Source: Escherichia phage kvi. From it: DNA of 64,000 nucleotides. The translations under genes and the position numbers were made by a program. Shown piece after piece: positions 3,815 to 56,447 of this stretch. The first letter of the stretch is position 1; every line of letters begins with the position of its first letter. A model generated the notes under the pieces. It had not been told where the DNA came from. It saw only the letters and a list, made by a program, of their open reading frames with translations, and did not search any database. Where the stretch lies: the sequence record MN850615.1; one strand, written 5' to 3'.

Positions 3815-4147
3815 TTATTGTTCTACAGTATAACCGTTGTTTTCAAGCCATGCAATAACAATCTTTTCGCCAATTTCATCGAGCATTTCATCAGCGCCAT
3901 ATTCTTTAATGAAAGTCGATGGATCATTATTGCTTACTACGTGCTGGATCACAACATGTTCAGGAATTGCGTCTAGTAGTTCGCTATGATCATACTCATT
4001 AACGATATCTTCAACACTAACATTATTAACCAAATCAACATCATCCATAGTCACAGTAACGCGACCGGACGGACGCAATGAATATTGGCTACTTTCAACT
4101 TCAACATGTGCACTTTCGCAAGTAACTTTCATATCAACCATAATCAA
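3815..4147 (-). CDS. strongly acidic small protein (110 aa, about 23 D/E vs 5 K/R)
   Basis: track ORF; composition counted by eye. Confidence 0.5.
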   Translation of the reverse strand: MIMVDMKVTCESAHVEVESSQYSLRPSGRVTVTMDDVDLVNNVSVEDIVNEYDHSELLDAIPEHVVIQHVVSNNDPSTFIKEYGADEMLDEIGEKIVIAWLENNGYTVEQ

Positions 4148-4155
4148 TTCCTCTG

Positions 4156-5157
4156 TTAGTAATGGCTAAAACCTTCGGTCACATCTTCAACCACATAGTA
4201 ACGATGACAGCGCATTTTGGCATTTGCATAATCTTTCGGGATACTTACAACGTGACGCGGATCAACTTTGCATTTAATGATTCGGCCTCGTCCACCGCCA
4301 TAGTGCGGAATATAGTGTTTCGCTGCAACGTGGAGGCCATTAGAGCAAGTGCGATCATCATCTGGGTCCACGTCTTTACGCTTCATTTTAACCGTGCGAC
4401 CTGGGCTATTATCAAACGTATGCGTAAAGAAATCTTTATAATCAACATCAACACGTTTCCATGCATAGAAACAACCATCTTCCACGATCTCAATGTCGTT
4501 GTGCTCTAAGAAGTCAAATAGACGATCTACGGCCTTACGGCTAGGGTTTTTCTTGCACTTCTCAAAGAAGTTAAGATAGTGCGTATATGGCTTATTCTCT
4601 TTAATCGACTCCACAACTCGACGAGTCAGATTATTATCAAGAACAATATTATGATAATACACAATACCATTTTCGATACGGAAAGCGCCGTGATAATATA
4701 CTTCAACCGCTTTCTTAATGTCAATCAGCGTAATAGCTTTGATGAAATCATTATGTTTAATCGCTTCCAGTGCTTCCTTAAAGTTAACATGTGATGGATC
4801 AGCAGTATAAACAATGTCACCACATGTAATAGTAATAAACTTAGTTGAGGCTATGGCTACGATTTTTGAGGAAGTAGTTACGGGCTTTTTTGCGCGTTCA
4901 CCGCCTTTTCCTTTACTGGTTTTACGGCGTGCTTTACGTTTTTCTAGTGCCTTGCGACCTTCCGCTACTGCGTCTTTCTGAATCAGTAATACACGGGAGG
5001 CAGTGCGACGAGATACACCAAATGCTGCCGCAAGTGCTTCGCGGGTAGTAAACTTACCTTCGCCCCACTGTTTAGCCAGTTTGATTTGTTTCGCAGAATC
5101 CAGACATTGAACGTTACGGTCAGAGACGGTGATTTTTGCTTTAGTCATAGTATTCAT
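4156..5157 (-). CDS. rIIB: RIIB-like protein
   Basis: C-terminal half recalls T4 rIIB (..KCKVDPRHVVSIPKDYANAKMR..VVEDVTE..); adjacent to rIIA; alternative ATG at 5148 has the better SD. Confidence 0.8.
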   Translation of the reverse strand: MNTMTKAKITVSDRNVQCLDSAKQIKLAKQWGEGKFTTREALAAAFGVSRRTASRVLLIQKDAVAEGRKALEKRKARRKTSKGKGGERAKKPVTTSSKIVAIASTKFITITCGDIVYTADPSHVNFKEALEAIKHNDFIKAITLIDIKKAVEVYYHGAFRIENGIVYYHNIVLDNNLTRRVVESIKENKPYTHYLNFFEKCKKNPSRKAVDRLFDFLEHNDIEIVEDGCFYAWKRVDVDYKDFFTHTFDNSPGRTVKMKRKDVDPDDDRTCSNGLHVAAKHYIPHYGGGRGRIIKCKVDPRHVVSIPKDYANAKMRCHRYYVVEDVTEGFSHY

Positions 5158-15006: not shown

Positions 15007-15510
15007 TTAAATTAAAGAAAATTTGTAAATCTCTATCAGATCGCCGTTACACGCGTAAACTTCCTCGATCTCATCAAGGATCATGGTCGTCCCTGTCTTG
15101 TATATGCACTCGCGCTCATCTGCCAACATAGCATACAAAGACAGTCGAGTAGTCGGATTGTCATACTCTTTAGACACCACTCGGTCAATAGCATGTTCGT
15201 AATAATTCATGCAAGGCTTGGTAGGTTTTATTGCAATAATCTTTCCTGTTGCATAAACATCGGTCGCAAAGTCCTCTGCTGTTGATTGCAGTGGCGTAAA
15301 GCTCATAGGACGCTCTACAACGAAAGAATCGCCTACAATTAAGGTATCCAGCTTACGACCTTCTCTTTTGCTCACACCGCGATACAAGGCTTCATGATGC
15401 ACTAACCGCTCAGTCTTTTCGATCAATCCATTAAGGATCGACATATCGATATTTTCTTTAGAGTTCATCACTTCATCAATGATGTTAAGTTCTTCTGGTG
15501 TAAATTGCAT
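15007..15510 (-). CDS. putative mono-ADP-ribosyltransferase (ModA/ModB-like)
   Basis: ART-like triad Y-R-G.., ..S-T-A.., ..E-R-E.. with typical spacing; sits between dda and gene 56 where T4 has modA/modB. Confidence 0.5.
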   Translation of the reverse strand: MQFTPEELNIIDEVMNSKENIDMSILNGLIEKTERLVHHEALYRGVSKREGRKLDTLIVGDSFVVERPMSFTPLQSTAEDFATDVYATGKIIAIKPTKPCMNYYEHAIDRVVSKEYDNPTTRLSLYAMLADERECIYKTGTTMILDEIEEVYACNGDLIEIYKFSLI

Positions 15511-25757: not shown

Positions 25758-26120
25758 TTATCGCCCGATCTGATATTTCTCGATCAGCGTCCACTCTTCT
25801 TTCTGTTTGAAAGACAATACACGGAAATTATTAACTTCGGTAGTTTCAAAATCACTATCAATCAGGGTACACAGATTCCACTGCGCCAGAAGTTTTGCAA
25901 TGTTATTACGGCGTAATTCATCTTCCCACGTCATTTTAACACTACGACCATCTAATTTCAACAACTCCTTGAAATGAACGATGTAATAGCGCCCTTTCTT
26001 CTGGAGAATATGACAAGACTGATACAGTGTCTTGTCTCGATTGTTGGCAATGCCGCAGCGGGTTAAAGTTTCCTTAATTTTAAGGAAGTTTTCAGGACTA
26101 ATCAAATTAATTTCAATCAT
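25758..26120 (-). CDS. regA: translational repressor RegA
   Basis: 120 aa; ..LYQSCHILQKKGRYYIVHFKE.. and C-terminus ..NNFRVLSFKQKEEW.. recall T4 RegA. Confidence 0.85.
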   Translation of the reverse strand: MIEINLISPENFLKIKETLTRCGIANNRDKTLYQSCHILQKKGRYYIVHFKELLKLDGRSVKMTWEDELRRNNIAKLLAQWNLCTLIDSDFETTEVNNFRVLSFKQKEEWTLIEKYQIGR

Positions 26121-26121
26121 T

Positions 26122-26700
26122 TTACCACCTTTCTATAATCTTTTTAAGTCGTTTCCTTTCTGTCTGATTCTTAGTAACACCCGCCAAAAGTTCATCGGTC
26201 GCATACGGTTTAATGTGCTTCAATAACTTGTCCATATATCCCTTTTCATTAGCCAAATCGAGATAAAACCGGGCGTCATCCATATTTACACAATATGCTT
26301 TCGCCACTGCCATTAAAACCAATTTTTGGTCCAATTCTTCTGTTAGTTTAGCCCATTTACCGTATCGTTTCCCCTTAGAAATACTCTGTAAGAGATAATC
26401 AAAATGCATTTGATCTGGGAGGCCATGACCGATTAAATTCATCACATACGCGCTATATAGGCAATCTGCGTGCTGGGAAAGAGCGGTGTTAATCCATCTC
26501 TGGTTATATGCAGAATTGTTTCCCACATTAACGCGCTGTTTATCTAAGGTGATATGATCCATCAGAGCAAATAATGCATTGTCGGTTTTCTCGGTGAATG
26601 TATCCGCTAATTCAGACACCTTTTCCCAATCACGAGAGCGCCATGCAATTTCATGCTCGTTTAATTGTGTATCATCTTCACCGAAAAATTGACCTAACAT
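26122..26700 (-). CDS. 62: clamp loader small subunit
   Basis: 192 aa; position between 44 and regA, 1-nt overlap with 44. Confidence 0.7.
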   Translation of the reverse strand: MLGQFFGEDDTQLNEHEIAWRSRDWEKVSELADTFTEKTDNALFALMDHITLDKQRVNVGNNSAYNQRWINTALSQHADCLYSAYVMNLIGHGLPDQMHFDYLLQSISKGKRYGKWAKLTEELDQKLVLMAVAKAYCVNMDDARFYLDLANEKGYMDKLLKHIKPYATDELLAGVTKNQTERKRLKKIIERW

Positions 26701-27674
26701 TATACGAACTCCAATTCAACCATTAATTGCATTAACAAAAAGACAATGTGAATCTCTTTATCAGCCGCGTGTGCAAACATCTGATTATTTTCACCGATAA
26801 TCTCGGTCAGACGTATAATCGACGCTGGCTTAACTTGAGTATACAACTCATTATAAAGTTTCTTGACAAATTGAGCGTATGTATTGGTATATCGCGGTGC
26901 AAGTTTACGCACATTAGCAAACTGTTTAGTTTTAAGTGCTTCCACCACATCGGTTACTTCGGTATTGCTACTTTCTATAACCATGCTCAATACGCCAGCA
27001 TCAATTTTACCATGTTTAGCGTAGCGGTCCAAAAGTTTCATTACGCGTCGGAAGTCTGGGAAGTTCTGCTTAACCAGTTCCGCTAATACGCGCATTTCTT
27101 CGACTGGCACACCTTCTTTATCAAGAATTGCTTTACACCGGACGATCATTTCTTTCATCATGCGAAGCTGATCATCTTTAGTCGGAGATCCAAACGTGAT
27201 TGGATCAAATCGAGATCGTAACGCTGGGATAATACCTTCTAGATCGTTTGCTGTGATAATGAATGTTACATTGTTTGAGTATGCCTCAGAGAAACTACGC
27301 AAGTGTCTTTGAGCATCAGCTAGCCCCGCTCGGTCATACTCATCGATAATAACAACTTTGCCTTTTTCTCGTTTTTCTTCATCGAGTGATACACTCTGCG
27401 CAAAGCGTGTAATCTCATCTCGGATAAAATCAATCTTACAATCTGCGCCGTTAACAAACAGATAATCAACACCCACATCTTCGCAAAGCGCCTTAGCAAC
27501 GGTTGTTTTACCAGTACCCGGCGATGGGCTATGCAGAATCATTGAAGGGATTCGGCCTTGCTTAACAATCTGCGCGAAGATCTTTTTATCTGCTTCCGGC
27601 AGAATACATTCAGAAATTGATTTCGGACGGTATTTCTGTTCCCACTGAAACTCATTTTCATTAACACTCAGCAT
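26700..27674 (-). CDS. 44: clamp loader large subunit (AAA+)
   Basis: Walker A SPSPGTGKTT, Walker B ..VIIDEYD..; track ORF trimmed to ATG 27674. Confidence 0.9.
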   Translation of the reverse strand: MLSVNENEFQWEQKYRPKSISECILPEADKKIFAQIVKQGRIPSMILHSPSPGTGKTTVAKALCEDVGVDYLFVNGADCKIDFIRDEITRFAQSVSLDEEKREKGKVVIIDEYDRAGLADAQRHLRSFSEAYSNNVTFIITANDLEGIIPALRSRFDPITFGSPTKDDQLRMMKEMIVRCKAILDKEGVPVEEMRVLAELVKQNFPDFRRVMKLLDRYAKHGKIDAGVLSMVIESSNTEVTDVVEALKTKQFANVRKLAPRYTNTYAQFVKKLYNELYTQVKPASIIRLTEIIGENNQMFAHAADKEIHIVFLLMQLMVELEFV

Positions 27675-27739
27675 ATAATCACCTCTCACAAATTACATCA
27701 TTAAAACGGGGAGTATTTATACTCCCCACAAACATTATA

Positions 27740-28429
27740 TTAGTCGGTGTAGCTGGAGTCAAGGTCACACGCGATCATATAAGATACGGTTTCACTTGCC
27801 AGCCATACAGCCTTACGGCGAGTGAAGCTCAGTTTGTAATCGCCGAAGTCAGTAGCAACCAGTTTCATGTTATCTTTACGAATAAAGAAATGGAAGTCTG
27901 CGGTTCCGGTATATTCGCCCATATCAAGACAAAACATCTCATTAGGATTATTTTTGTCAATCTCTTCCCAACCTTTGATCATCAGACGACCATCAATCGG
28001 AAGAAATTCAAGGCGATCCACTTTAAGCTGATTGCTCATTTTCATAAGCTGTTTCAGATCGTCGTTGCTCAGTTCGTAATCTACATCGCTTGCAGGTGGA
28101 GTAACTCGGCCTTTCGGTGATACGATAGCAGCAGCACTAGCACCAGGGTAATTAATTTTCAGACGATCATTAGACACACGAATGTTTCCGGTGCGGTCAT
28201 CAACCGTAATATCTGCTTCATCGCCTACCAGATTCAGAATACCCAGGAAAGAGTTAAGATCATAGATCCCGATTTCGTGTTCCAGTTCTTGATTCAGAGT
28301 CGCTTCACCATATACAACGTTTGTCATGTTTTTGGTGATTAGGACGTTTCCTTTTTTCAGGATGATACCTGGGTTAATAGCGGAAAAGTTTTTCATGGTA
28401 GCAATGGTTTCTTTAGTCAGTTTCATCAA
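27740..28429 (-). CDS. 45: sliding clamp
   Basis: 229 aa; N-terminus ..TIATMKNFSAINPGIILK.. recalls T4 gp45. Confidence 0.9.
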   Translation of the reverse strand: MMKLTKETIATMKNFSAINPGIILKKGNVLITKNMTNVVYGEATLNQELEHEIGIYDLNSFLGILNLVGDEADITVDDRTGNIRVSNDRLKINYPGASAAAIVSPKGRVTPPASDVDYELSNDDLKQLMKMSNQLKVDRLEFLPIDGRLMIKGWEEIDKNNPNEMFCLDMGEYTGTADFHFFIRKDNMKLVATDFGDYKLSFTRRKAVWLASETVSYMIACDLDSSYTD

Positions 28430-28456
28430 ATCACCTTTATCATGTTAATCAATTAA

Positions 28457-28855
28457 TTACGGGTTTACTTCGTGCTCATTTTGAATCTTTAGCATTCTTT
28501 CGATAAATTTTTTCTCGGCTTCCTTGTCGGATGAGTGAGTATACTTCAATCCAATGTAAGCTGTCAAGTATTGTTGCAGAGCATAGACAGTAACAGGATT
28601 CTTTGCGGTCTTTTTGCCGTCGAGATATACCAGATCACCACGAACATCAAACGCAAGTTTACGACGAATCACATCATCAACAAATTTATCTAGAACAAAA
28701 TACCACTCAATACACTCTATCCCGTGACGGTAGTTCATTACATCATTATCTTTGATATAGTCAAACGGAATATGACATAATTTACTATTTTGTAGGATGA
28801 ATAGCATTTGTTCTTTTAAGCTCATACGTTTCATTCTATCACTTCCCATCAGCAA
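28457..28855 (-). CDS. hypothetical protein (132 aa); occupies the rpbA-like position
   Basis: track ORF; positional only. Confidence 0.45.
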   Translation of the reverse strand: MLMGSDRMKRMSLKEQMLFILQNSKLCHIPFDYIKDNDVMNYRHGIECIEWYFVLDKFVDDVIRRKLAFDVRGDLVYLDGKKTAKNPVTVYALQQYLTAYIGLKYTHSSDKEAEKKFIERMLKIQNEHEVNP

Positions 28856-29231
28856 TTGCGATTAGACGAGTTACTACTACGCTAGCGGCTTCAATCAGCA
28901 GTTCATCAGTATCAATCTGATAACCCTTTTCGAGAATATCTTTACCTCGAATAGTTTTAGCGCCTTTAGCAATTGAATCATCGTAATACTTGCGCATTGC
29001 CGCGATCCATTCTTTTTGCACCATATCATCAATATGCGCGTACAGTTCAAAGCGTGCTTGCTGCGGGATAACCTTCATTTTAGCTTTCTCGCTTTCCGGC
29101 ATTTGTAGTACCCACGCTTTACGGATCTTGTTCATTGCTCGGTCAAATTCGAGACTGGTTTTCTTGTTCTGAATGTCTGCTACAGTAATTTTAGCCAGGT
29201 TTGCGGAAGTAGTCATAATATTAATCTCCAA
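28839..29231 (-). CDS. hypothetical protein (130 aa)
   Basis: track ORF. Confidence 0.45.
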   Translation of the reverse strand: MEINIMTTSANLAKITVADIQNKKTSLEFDRAMNKIRKAWVLQMPESEKAKMKVIPQQARFELYAHIDDMVQKEWIAAMRKYYDDSIAKGAKTIRGKDILEKGYQIDTDELLIEAASVVVTRLIAIADGK

Positions 29232-38757: not shown

Positions 38758-39283
38758 TTTTGATACGTGATTCTAATTGGATCATACGGTCGCGCGTTTG
38801 CTTGTATTCGCGGATAGCACCGATCCGGCTAGGCATACCATCCAGTACGCTCTTAATACCTTCTATGGTAGTAATTTTGGCAATGCTATTATGTAACCCC
38901 ATCTTATCGATCAACTGAATGTCGTAGGCTTCCATAAGCAGACCCAGACGTTCTAAAGTTAGGTCTTCTTCTTTTTCTTCCGATTCTGGAATCTTAGGTT
39001 CAATAGTAACTTCGGTAAAGAAACGACGCTCACCCGACCAAAACCACACACCGGAACAGCCAATAGGGGATTCTTTTAACGTCATAGAGTCGAAATTACT
39101 ATTATTGGTAGTAATTTCTCTAACATCACCATCATCGTCAAGGTCTTCTACCCTAAACGGGCGACCAGCCAACAAGTCAACAATACATCTGTTAATAGAC
39201 GACGAAAATTTAGTCAGTTCGGCTTTCGACGCTTCGCATTCAATCTTGTAAGTTTTACCAACTTCCCATTCCATAATAATCAC
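38747..39283 (-). CDS. paralogous family member
   Basis: 178 aa; MEWEVGKTYK.., ..ERRFFTEV.., helical tail. Confidence 0.5.
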   Translation of the reverse strand: MIIMEWEVGKTYKIECEASKAELTKFSSSINRCIVDLLAGRPFRVEDLDDDGDVREITTNNSNFDSMTLKESPIGCSGVWFWSGERRFFTEVTIEPKIPESEEKEEDLTLERLGLLMEAYDIQLIDKMGLHNSIAKITTIEGIKSVLDGMPSRIGAIREYKQTRDRMIQLESRIKNER

Positions 39284-39284
39284 C

Positions 39285-39794
39285 TCAAATAATTTTCACT
39301 GGAATACTATTAACAATCTTGTATTGTACTTGATTGTCAGACCCCCGCCACGGCTTCTTCGTTGGCATATCTTTAATATAACGCCCATCGATGAACATGT
39401 CAACTGATTCTACAATTTTTCTTTGCTCATCATTCAATTGGTCAAGGGTATAACCAGACCATAGCCAAATATCTTTATTTGGCATCCATGATTTTACTTC
39501 ATCGATGATCCGCTGTACACCCTTTAAATTGCGTTTATACAATGGATCGCCACCTAAGAATGTTAGCCCCTGAATAAAATCAGGTCTAAGCAGATCCAGA
39601 ATCAATCCCATTGTATCATCGGTGAATGGTTCCCCGTTCTTAGGATTGAGTAGGCTAGCATTAAAGCAACCATCACATGCGTGTGAACATCCGGTAACGT
39701 AAAGGGAGACTCTCACTCCCTCACCGTTCACCATATCACAATCTTTAATATCGGCATAGCGTAGCTTGCCGTATGTATCAGAACTCATATTCAA
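39285..39794 (-). CDS. nrdG: anaerobic ribonucleotide reductase activating protein (radical SAM)
   Basis: 169 aa; cysteine cluster ..GCSHACDGCFN.. Confidence 0.85.
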   Translation of the reverse strand: MNMSSDTYGKLRYADIKDCDMVNGEGVRVSLYVTGCSHACDGCFNASLLNPKNGEPFTDDTMGLILDLLRPDFIQGLTFLGGDPLYKRNLKGVQRIIDEVKSWMPNKDIWLWSGYTLDQLNDEQRKIVESVDMFIDGRYIKDMPTKKPWRGSDNQVQYKIVNSIPVKII

Positions 39795-54932: not shown

Positions 54933-55225
54933 TAATTAATCTCCAAAAATCCAGCAAGACCTAAACCAATATAAGTCCAGATACAAAGGAAAAAGAAGCA
55001 AACACCCATAGCAAAGATAAATCCGCGTAGTGTCTTTGGATAACCTACCCAATATTCCCGACCATTTTCTAACCGGATCAGTTTATTTCCTTGAGAGTCC
55101 ATATCAATTACAACATGTTTATTTCTGGATTGTAACAGATATTGCTTGACAATCTCAATACCCGCCATAATAACAATAACGAAATTAAAAGTCCACATAA
55201 CAAGGTTAATGATAGTCTCAAGCAT
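54932..55225 (-). CDS. small membrane protein (two predicted TM helices)
   Basis: track ORF; hydrophobic N- and C-terminal segments. Confidence 0.45.
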   Translation of the reverse strand: MLETIINLVMWTFNFVIVIMAGIEIVKQYLLQSRNKHVVIDMDSQGNKLIRLENGREYWVGYPKTLRGFIFAMGVCFFFLCIWTYIGLGLAGFLEIN

Positions 55226-55460
55226 TTTCTATCACCTCCACCCAATCAGGCGTTTCCTGAAATACTCCTTCGCCTTCGTGGTGGATGCATCCTTTATTGC
55301 TACAATACATCCACCAATCCCACATTCCCCACGGTAAACGCTGCATATCGTCGTTACAGCAAGTGAAGACAATAGGCCAACCACATCTAACACATCGGCA
55401 GTTTTCCTTCATGTGAGCGGTATTAGGATTCTTCATAGATGACTCCAATATAATCGACAT
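55218..55460 (-). CDS. small Cys/His-rich protein (putative zinc-binding)
   Basis: ..CRCVRCGWPIVFTCCN..CSNKGCIHH.. Confidence 0.4.
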   Translation of the reverse strand: MSIILESSMKNPNTAHMKENCRCVRCGWPIVFTCCNDDMQRLPWGMWDWWMYCSNKGCIHHEGEGVFQETPDWVEVIENA

Positions 55461-55627
55461 TTACATTTAGGGCAATGCGGTTCTTTAATATAATACCCGT
55501 CTGTCTTTGGAACACTAACAGGAGCGGTTTTTATATTGTATTCCGTGAAACAACGAAAACAAGTTACGTTTTCCACAGACTGACGTTTCACCCAATCACC
55601 GGAATAGAGGTCATTTTTATTTGTCAT
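55433..55627 (-). CDS. small zinc-ribbon-like protein
   Basis: track ORF 55433..55663 trimmed to ATG 55627; ..CFRCF..CPKCKC.. Confidence 0.4.
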   Translation of the reverse strand: MTNKNDLYSGDWVKRQSVENVTCFRCFTEYNIKTAPVSVPKTDGYYIKEPHCPKCKCRLYWSHL

Positions 55628-56072
55628 ATTCCACCACCACAATGTTAATGTCTGGAGTAGCAATATTAATGATCTCTTCTACACATTCCCACTCAAGGCC
55701 ACCGATACCGCAACCGATTTTAGGAATATAGAAAGGCTGTATAGCACCTTCAAAAACATCATTGAGAGTCTCAAATCCTTTCAGGATAGCACCATATTCA
55801 GCATTTGGACCCGGTCGGAATTGGGTATAGAGATTCACCCCGCACCAGTTATAACCATTAACTCGATGAGTCCAGACACTAAACCCACCCAGCTTTTCGA
55901 CCTTACCGCGAGAAGTTTGCTTGTCAATCTCTAACGCTTGCGGGAACTCTTTCGCGATCTTCGCAGCAATACCAGCGCCCATAGTATGAAAACAATTACA
56001 ACCATGAATTAAATGACCGTTTCCTTGTTTAAACAGGGCGATGAGATCGCCCTTTACAGTATCAATAATCAT
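55617..56072 (-). CDS. macrodomain protein of the TARG1/DarG-like type (putative ADP-ribose hydrolase)
   Basis: 151 aa; ..HLIHGCNCFHTMGAGIAAKI.. and ..PKIGCGIGGLEWECV.. recall TARG1 (..CRMGAGIA.. / ..PRIGCGLDRLQWENV..). Confidence 0.6.
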   Translation of the reverse strand: MIIDTVKGDLIALFKQGNGHLIHGCNCFHTMGAGIAAKIAKEFPQALEIDKQTSRGKVEKLGGFSVWTHRVNGYNWCGVNLYTQFRPGPNAEYGAILKGFETLNDVFEGAIQPFYIPKIGCGIGGLEWECVEEIINIATPDINIVVVEYDK

Positions 56073-56087
56073 AATATAAACCTCTCA

Positions 56088-56447
56088 TTAGTCACGGGAA
56101 GACAACCCAGCCATAAAACGGCTTAACAGTGTGTCGCGATAAGCAAAGCATAATTGCTTATCAGGAGCAGTATCACACAAGTTGCGTTTTGTTTTAGCAA
56201 AGCTGGCAATACTCAGATCCCATGCTCGATTTTTTCGTTTTTCGTCTCGACCTTGTTTGTATGCTTCATCAAGTTCGAGCGCGATAAAATCACTACACAT
56301 GTTATCATCATCACAGAAGGTTTTAATGATCTTTTTGTTGATCTCAAATCCTTTGTATTCGAACTTTGGATAAGGGCGCTCATTACTAGCAAGCGCACCA
56401 GCCGAGAACATCATAGCAATCATAGCAACTATTGTCAACTTTTTCAT
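56088..56447 (-). CDS. secreted/periplasmic protein (cleavable signal peptide, 4 Cys)
   Basis: N-terminus MKKLTIVAMIAMMFSAGALA. Confidence 0.5.
   Translation of the reverse strand: MKKLTIVAMIAMMFSAGALASNERPYPKFEYKGFEINKKIIKTFCDDDNMCSDFIALELDEAYKQGRDEKRKNRAWDLSIASFAKTKRNLCDTAPDKQLCFAYRDTLLSRFMAGLSSRD

Follow-up and report, generated by a model that had tools for sequence, protein, structure and literature searches.

A Krischvirus Ortholog of T4 tk.4 (adfM) Encodes an ALC1-Like Macrodomain with Glutamine at the TARG1/DarG Lysine Position

The 64,000-nucleotide stretch of Escherichia phage kvi analysed here (MN850615.1; "the window") encodes a stand-alone macrodomain protein of 151 amino acids, the Krischvirus ortholog of T4 Tk.4, a member of a gene family whose anti-DarT role is already known. 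The best explanation, to which we give a probability of about 0.65, is that this AdfM ortholog uses a glutamine-type active site, resembling that of SCO6735, to erase the ADP-ribosylation of thymidine by DarT2 (Table 1).

The open reading frame is real: it has an ATG start and contains both segments quoted by the first-pass annotation, and its 3′ end runs 11 nt into the next gene. That annotation had assigned the product to the TARG1/DarG type of macrodomain, to be checked by a macro-domain profile search and by structural comparison with TARG1 and DarG; both analyses support the class assignment. The protein covers the whole Pfam macro domain profile (PF01661; 28.7 bits against a gathering cut-off of 22) and matches PHROG 335 (E 8e-63). 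A profile built from 56 homologs matches the sequences of TARG1 (8e-15), BT1257 (4e-14), SCO6735 (2e-13), Mycobacterium tuberculosis DarG (6e-13), and yeast Poa1p (2e-12) in the PDB. An AlphaFold2 model (mean pLDDT 94) has the three-layer alpha/beta macro fold, with TARG1 and DarG as its top Foldseek matches (TM 0.78-0.84). The nearest neighbours in structure and sequence are therefore those of the ALC1-like class (TARG1/DarG/SCO6735/Poa1p), not of the MacroD, viral, or PARG types, and the presence of a macrodomain at this locus is confirmed.

Table 1. Positions in the window of the macrodomain gene, its active-site segments, and genes and sites discussed in the text
Feature	Position	Strand	Basis or remark
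tk.4/adfM ortholog; stand-alone ALC1-like (TARG1/DarG/SCO6735/Poa1p class) macrodomain, 151 aa	55617..56072	-	
Shine-Dalgarno sequence GAGAGG	56081..56086	-	8 nt upstream of the macrodomain ATG; direct sequence reading
Loop 1, residues 23-36, HGCNCFHTMGAGIA; predicted distal-ribose/phosphate binding; includes H23, N26, and T30	55965..56006	-	
Asp50 codon	55923-55925		
Residues 80-84, NLYTQ; strand end with Gln84 at the TARG1 K84/DarG K80 catalytic-lysine position	55821..55835	-	HMMER alignments
Loop 2, residues 117-128, PKIGCGIGGLEW; predicted diphosphate binding	55689..55724	-	Aligns to TARG1 PRIGCGLDRLQW and DarG PPLGVGNGGLDW
Small ORF downstream of the macrodomain gene	55218-55460	-	Pfam Phage_zn_bind and Phage_zn_bind_2 (this and the next ORF)
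Small ORF downstream of the macrodomain gene	55433-55663	-	
Sigma-70-like site	56410-56438	-	TTGACA, 17-nt spacer, TATGAT, TG extension; 11/12 matches
vs.1 ortholog	56455-57045	-	Lytic transglycosylase (SLT) domain, Pfam E 6.6e-6
ModA/ModB-like ADP-ribosyltransferase (context gene)	15007..15510	-	PHROG 832, BLASTP, motifs, srd neighbour

The 3.3-kb neighbourhood of the gene is 98-99% identical to Krischvirus (RB49-like) phages of Escherichia coli, in whose records the macrodomain gene is labelled "macro domain protein," "phosphatase," or "hypothetical protein." The order of genes in the window (rI, tk, three small ORFs, the macrodomain gene, vs, SLT-like vs.1, and regB) matches that in T4 (rI, rI.1, tk, tk.1-tk.3, tk.4, vs, vs.1, and regB). 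Full-length alignment with T4 Tk.4 gives 44% identity (E 3e-45, 153 aligned columns), in keeping with the divergence of the neighbouring genes from their T4 orthologs (tk 53%, vs.1 52%, regB 41%, and vs 27%); together with the shared gene order, this identifies the window gene as the positional ortholog of T4 tk.4. Both genes lie between tk and vs of a T4-like genome, and their products belong to the same length class (151 aa in the window, 155 aa in T4) and share the motifs HGCNCFHTMG and NLYTQ. They differ in loop 2, which reads GCGIGGLEW in the window and GAGIGKGNW in T4, and in their scores against DarG profiles, where the window protein is ahead of T4 Tk.4 (52 bits versus 36 bits).

The macrodomain gene lies in a leftward block whose T4 counterpart consists of early genes. 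The best sigma-70-like site of the region is found inside the 5′ end of vs, and a transcript from it would begin just upstream of the macrodomain gene; the number of such sites in the upstream scan is not significantly above that in shuffled sequence (20 versus 14.1 ± 4.0), so the timing of macrodomain expression is still read from T4. The two small ORFs downstream belong to phage zinc-binding families (E 1e-33 and 2e-23) and fill the tk.2/tk.3 slots, with no BLASTP similarity to T4 tk.2/tk.3. The vs.1 ortholog has a signal-like N-terminal segment in addition to its SLT domain; T4 vs.1 is annotated as hypothetical only.

The active site is strongly conserved in an alignment of 56 homologs. In loop 1, every sequence has G24, N26, C27, M31, G34, and A36, and 55 of the 56 have H23; in loop 2, P117, I119, G120, and G122 are invariant, with G125 and W128 at 90% or more. 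Loop 1 is most like that of yeast Poa1p (LIHSCNCNGSWGGGIA), with which it shares the pattern HxCNC...GxGIA; the residues mutated in Poa1p, H23 and S30, stand opposite H23 and T30 of the window protein, and N26 has the same offset as N23 of the PhiKZ AdfM. Asp50, which belongs to a helix (residues 44-51) standing opposite a gap of TARG1 in the profile alignment, is invariant in all 56 homologs and is conserved in neither DarG nor the PhiKZ protein.

At the catalytic level the likeness to TARG1 and DarG, whose hallmark segments the first-pass annotation had recognised in the two loops, breaks down. In HMMER alignments, "PTKKHW" of DarG lies opposite "YTQFRP" of the window protein (within "NLYTQFRPG"), TARG1 K84 lies opposite Gln84, and TARG1 D125 lies opposite Gly124, within the loop 2 stretch "GCGIGGLEW." The register of Gln84 was checked by its distance to the invariant PxIG anchor, which is 33 residues in the window protein, 35 in T4 Tk.4, 34 in both TARG1 and DarG, and 39 in BT1257. 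HMMER was used for the register of DarG and the PhiKZ protein because MAFFT, at the T-K motif, was one residue out for both. HMMER also placed the glutamine of BT1257 five residues off, which was set aside as a loop-length artefact on the strength of the anchor distances and of a published five-residue-longer loop. On these alignments the catalytic lysine of TARG1 and DarG (K84 and, in T. aquaticus DarG, K80) and the aspartate of TARG1 are absent, and the Lys/Asp covalent mechanism of TARG1 cannot, with Gln and Gly at those positions, operate in the window protein. Column 84 holds glutamine in 55 of the 56 aligned homologs and lysine in one; a wider set of 120 homologs has 114 glutamines and two lysines. 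The family thus has a nearly invariant glutamine here, as in SCO6735, and T4 Tk.4, which is genetically validated, has the same NLYTQ. The sole lysine in the 56-sequence alignment belongs to a homolog with "NLYTK," in which K has naturally taken the place of Q where TARG1 and DarG have their lysine.

A glutamine at this position is compatible with activity. In SCO6735, Gln85 is equivalent to TARG1 K84 and DarG K80, and the Q85A substitution abolishes activity; the wild-type enzyme outpaces both DarG and TARG1 in freeing thymidine of the ADP-ribose that DarT attaches, and it rescues E. coli from DarT (PMC9411070). We equate Gln84 with SCO6735 Gln85 by way of TARG1/DarG and BT1257 (54% identical). 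Like the window protein, SCO6735 and BT1257 have glutamine at the lysine position, an N-x-x-x-Q strand end, and an H-x-C-N loop 1, and they have no Lys/Asp dyad. [quoted passage not shown] The loop after the glutamine is some 5-6 residues shorter in the window protein, which does not have the longer mobile loop of these two, and the DNA-binding loop lysines of SCO6735 are missing, which counts against the best explanation. SCO6735 is, moreover, a cellular stand-alone gene and not a phage gene. A dead macrodomain, as loss of the lysine and aspartate might imply, was considered and rejected in view of the SCO6735 precedent, the same glutamine in the validated T4 protein, and the strict conservation of the site. 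The first-pass annotation had proposed that absence of the catalytic residues from a structural alignment should count against its idea; such a test would wrongly discard it, because SCO6735, a relative of the glutamine type, has full activity on DarT-modified thymidine.

Several features separate the window protein from DarG itself. It covers only positions 3-141 of the 329 in the DarG profile (the macrodomain third), reaches 49.9 bits where the NCBIfam DarG equivalog requires 250, and has no DarT among its gene's neighbours, which are tk, the small Zn-binding ORFs, vs, vs.1, and regB; by these criteria it is not a member of the DarG family. The catalytic lysine (FPTK), the C-terminal DarT-binding domain, and the operon with DarT that characterise DarG are all missing here. 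Human TARG1 (OARD1) is the best Foldseek match, at 28-30% identity, and has both of the loop motifs, but its K84 and D125 correspond to glutamine and glycine in the window protein. A bacterial homolog from Pelagimonas likewise has no DarT neighbour and so gives no reason to assume that the gene was recently captured from a DarTG operon. AdfB was considered as a relative and rejected, being an unrelated 77-aa DarT binder.

Published genetics link the gene family to DarTG2. In a HIDEN-SEQ screen posted in November 2025, tk.4 was the only T4 gene to score significantly on a host expressing DarTG2, and a clean tk.4 knockout made T4 sensitive to DarTG2; Tk.4 is structurally similar to the M. tuberculosis DarG macrodomain, and the gene was renamed adfM (anti-DarT factor Macrodomain), with removal of ADP-ribose from DNA called likely by the authors on inference (10.1101/2025.11.20.689424). 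This role fits the earlier finding that T4 without adfA and adfN remains resistant to DarTG2. The first-pass annotation had suggested that the phage might reverse host DarT-type DNA ADP-ribosylation, which agrees with the genetics of the T4 ortholog, and had presented the function as an open inference, a position overtaken by the naming of the family. By analogy with T4, the 44%-identical window ortholog would be expected to confer the same anti-DarTG2 phenotype. PhiKZ gp104, independently also named AdfM, removes ADP-ribose from DarT2-modified DNA in vitro, and its N23A substitution lowers activity; it is of the lysine type ("FPTKDNW"), and its identity to the window protein is only 26%. The name AdfM is thus shared by two distinct macrodomain lineages, and the biochemistry found for AdfM in the literature concerns the lysine-type PhiKZ protein, with none found for the Tk.4 type (Gln, short loop).

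In the proposed mechanism, DarT2 of the host DarTG2 toxin-antitoxin defence would ADP-ribosylate thymidines in single-stranded phage DNA, and the phage macrodomain would bind the ADP-ribose through its two glycine-rich loops and hydrolyse the ribose-thymine N-glycosidic bond, restoring replicable DNA and acting in effect as an orphan antitoxin. Catalysis would proceed without the TARG1/DarG lysine and in the manner of SCO6735, with Gln84 predicted to position the distal ribose and a water network and with N26 and H23 probably lining the active site. Enzymatic de-ADP-ribosylation of DNA by the window protein is put forward here by analogy with these better-characterised enzymes.

The main rival to this reading, which we regard as unlikely but the most serious of those considered, is that the protein dephosphorylates ADP-ribose-1″-phosphate instead of, or besides, acting on DNA; in a variant, it would process another soluble ADP-ribose derivative arising from NAD-consuming defences such as aRES. 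According to a January 2026 preprint, Adpp of Vibrio phage Gary is an ADPR-1″-phosphate phosphatase that lets NARP1 rebuild NAD+ after the aRES defence, and inactivating any of the three genes of NARP1-AP abolished the phenotype. The Gary macrodomain gene (4004-4480 of the examined stretch), which is the published Adpp, lies between Prs-like and Nampt-like genes, and the gene for another family member, in Acinetobacter phage vB_AbaM_B09_Aci01-1 (4001-4474 of the examined stretch), also adjoins a Nampt-like gene; both are distant relatives of the window protein. Adpp is of the glutamine type and 33% identical to the window protein, so that a verified member of the same sequence family has a different substrate. 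Its gene, however, is embedded between those for Adps and Namat, and its loop after the glutamine is seven residues longer, whereas the window gene is syntenic with T4 tk.4 and not with a NARP cassette. Homologs of Adps and Namat were found neither by annotation nor by tblastn (best E 0.07-0.7) in the window and in a 98.7%-identical complete genome, so an Adpp-type role here would have to do without the partner enzymes that are essential for Adpp. Other viral macrodomains, too, are reported to act as ADPR-1P phosphatases in vitro (January 2026 preprint), so that this activity would not by itself define a biological role; the window protein may have it as a secondary activity. We consider it improbable that the protein is instead a stoichiometric antagonist that binds DarT2 or shields ADP-ribosylated DNA without hydrolysis. 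The missing K84/K80 and D125 equivalents would suit such a role, the anti-DarT factors AdfA and AdfB work by binding, and the dead variants SCO6735 Q85A, DarG K80A, and TARG1 K84A can all still inhibit DarT through their interaction with it (PMC9411070). Yet N26, Q84, and both glycine loops are conserved (N26 in 56/56 and Q84 in 55/56 homologs) despite a mean column identity of 37%, which is typical of an enzyme; the glutamine at the catalytic position is essential in SCO6735 (PMC9411070); and the part of DarG that occludes DarT is the C-terminal domain, which is missing here.

The ADP-ribosyltransferases of this phage type raise a further alternative. The ModA/B-like gene noticed by the first-pass annotation is a genuine homolog: its product matches PHROG 832 (E 1e-20), T4 ModB (BLASTP E 8e-11), and ModA (E 2e-6), contains the R...S-x-T...E-x-E set of motifs (YRG 43-45, SFT 70-72, and ERE 132-134), and is encoded next to srd, exactly in the T4 modA/modB position. 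Its identification is through PHROG and BLASTP to T4 ModA/ModB only, with no sequence match in Pfam, PADLOC, NCBIfam, or the PDB. A single short gene (167 aa) thus stands where T4 has the modA-modB pair. The near-identical complete genome has this gene as well as two ADP-ribosyltransferase genes outside the window (26071-26895 and 26974-29025), for an exotoxin-type protein (274 aa; Pfam ADPrib_exo_Tox) and an Alt-like protein (683 aa). It also contains, adjoining the DNA ligase gene at 39221-39700 and likewise outside the window, a homolog of gp30.3 (Pfam Phage_30_3, E 1e-37), the family of the T4 NADAR anti-DarTG1 factor AdfN; this phage type therefore has homologs of both T4 anti-DarT erasers.

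With three ADP-ribosyltransferases and a macrodomain in one genome, and with TARG1-class enzymes able to de-modify proteins, the phage might tune its own ADP-ribosylation, as the first-pass annotation had suggested, the macrodomain removing ADP-ribose set on host or phage proteins by the ModA/B-like and Alt-like enzymes. We think this very improbable. The combination is the ordinary T4-like complement, so co-occurrence says little, and the transferase and macrodomain genes are 40 kb apart. T4 Alt, ModA, and ModB are arginine-specific (the T4 record gives RNAP alpha as the target of a T4 transferase), and arginine-linked ADP-ribose is reversed by hydrolases of the ARH1/DraG type, whereas the reviewed substrates of TARG1-class enzymes are esters and nucleic-acid adducts. 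In the HIDEN-SEQ screens, furthermore, Alt/ModA orthologs scored in another conflict, against Mokosh, and the DarTG2 host was the only one on which T4 tk.4 scored (10.1101/2025.11.20.689424).

Phage records with homologs of Tk.4 and the macrodomain protein number 2,735. The Krischvirus allele shares 68-69% identity with Vequintavirus macrodomain proteins (e.g., in Escherichia phage AlexBoehm, 3501-3959 of the examined stretch) and only 44-50% with Tk.4 of Tequatrovirus and Mosigvirus, which suggests lateral exchange of the gene among E. coli myovirus lineages.

No new kind of system is present here; RB49-like phages have the same AdfM locus as T4. The remaining interest lies in chemistry without the lysine and in a possible overlap of AdfM and Adpp activities, two reported anti-defence roles within one sequence family. 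Because the Tk.4-type AdfM has no DarG/TARG1 lysine and belongs to the same family as Adpp, a blanket anti-DarT label for all members would be premature. As a tentative and rather doubtful proposal, Tk.4-type AdfM proteins (about 2,700 phage records; Gln, short loop, and invariant Asp50) may form a lineage mechanistically separate from DarG and the PhiKZ AdfM, acting as broad ADP-ribose-1″-X hydrolases that both erase the DarT2 thymidine adduct and dephosphorylate ADPR-1″P. If this is true, one fold would serve the two published anti-defence roles, and the presence or absence of NARP1 in a genome would decide which matters. DarTG stops phage replication by ADP-ribosylation of DNA, and a list of the phages that carry an eraser makes host range easier to predict, in phage therapy for instance.
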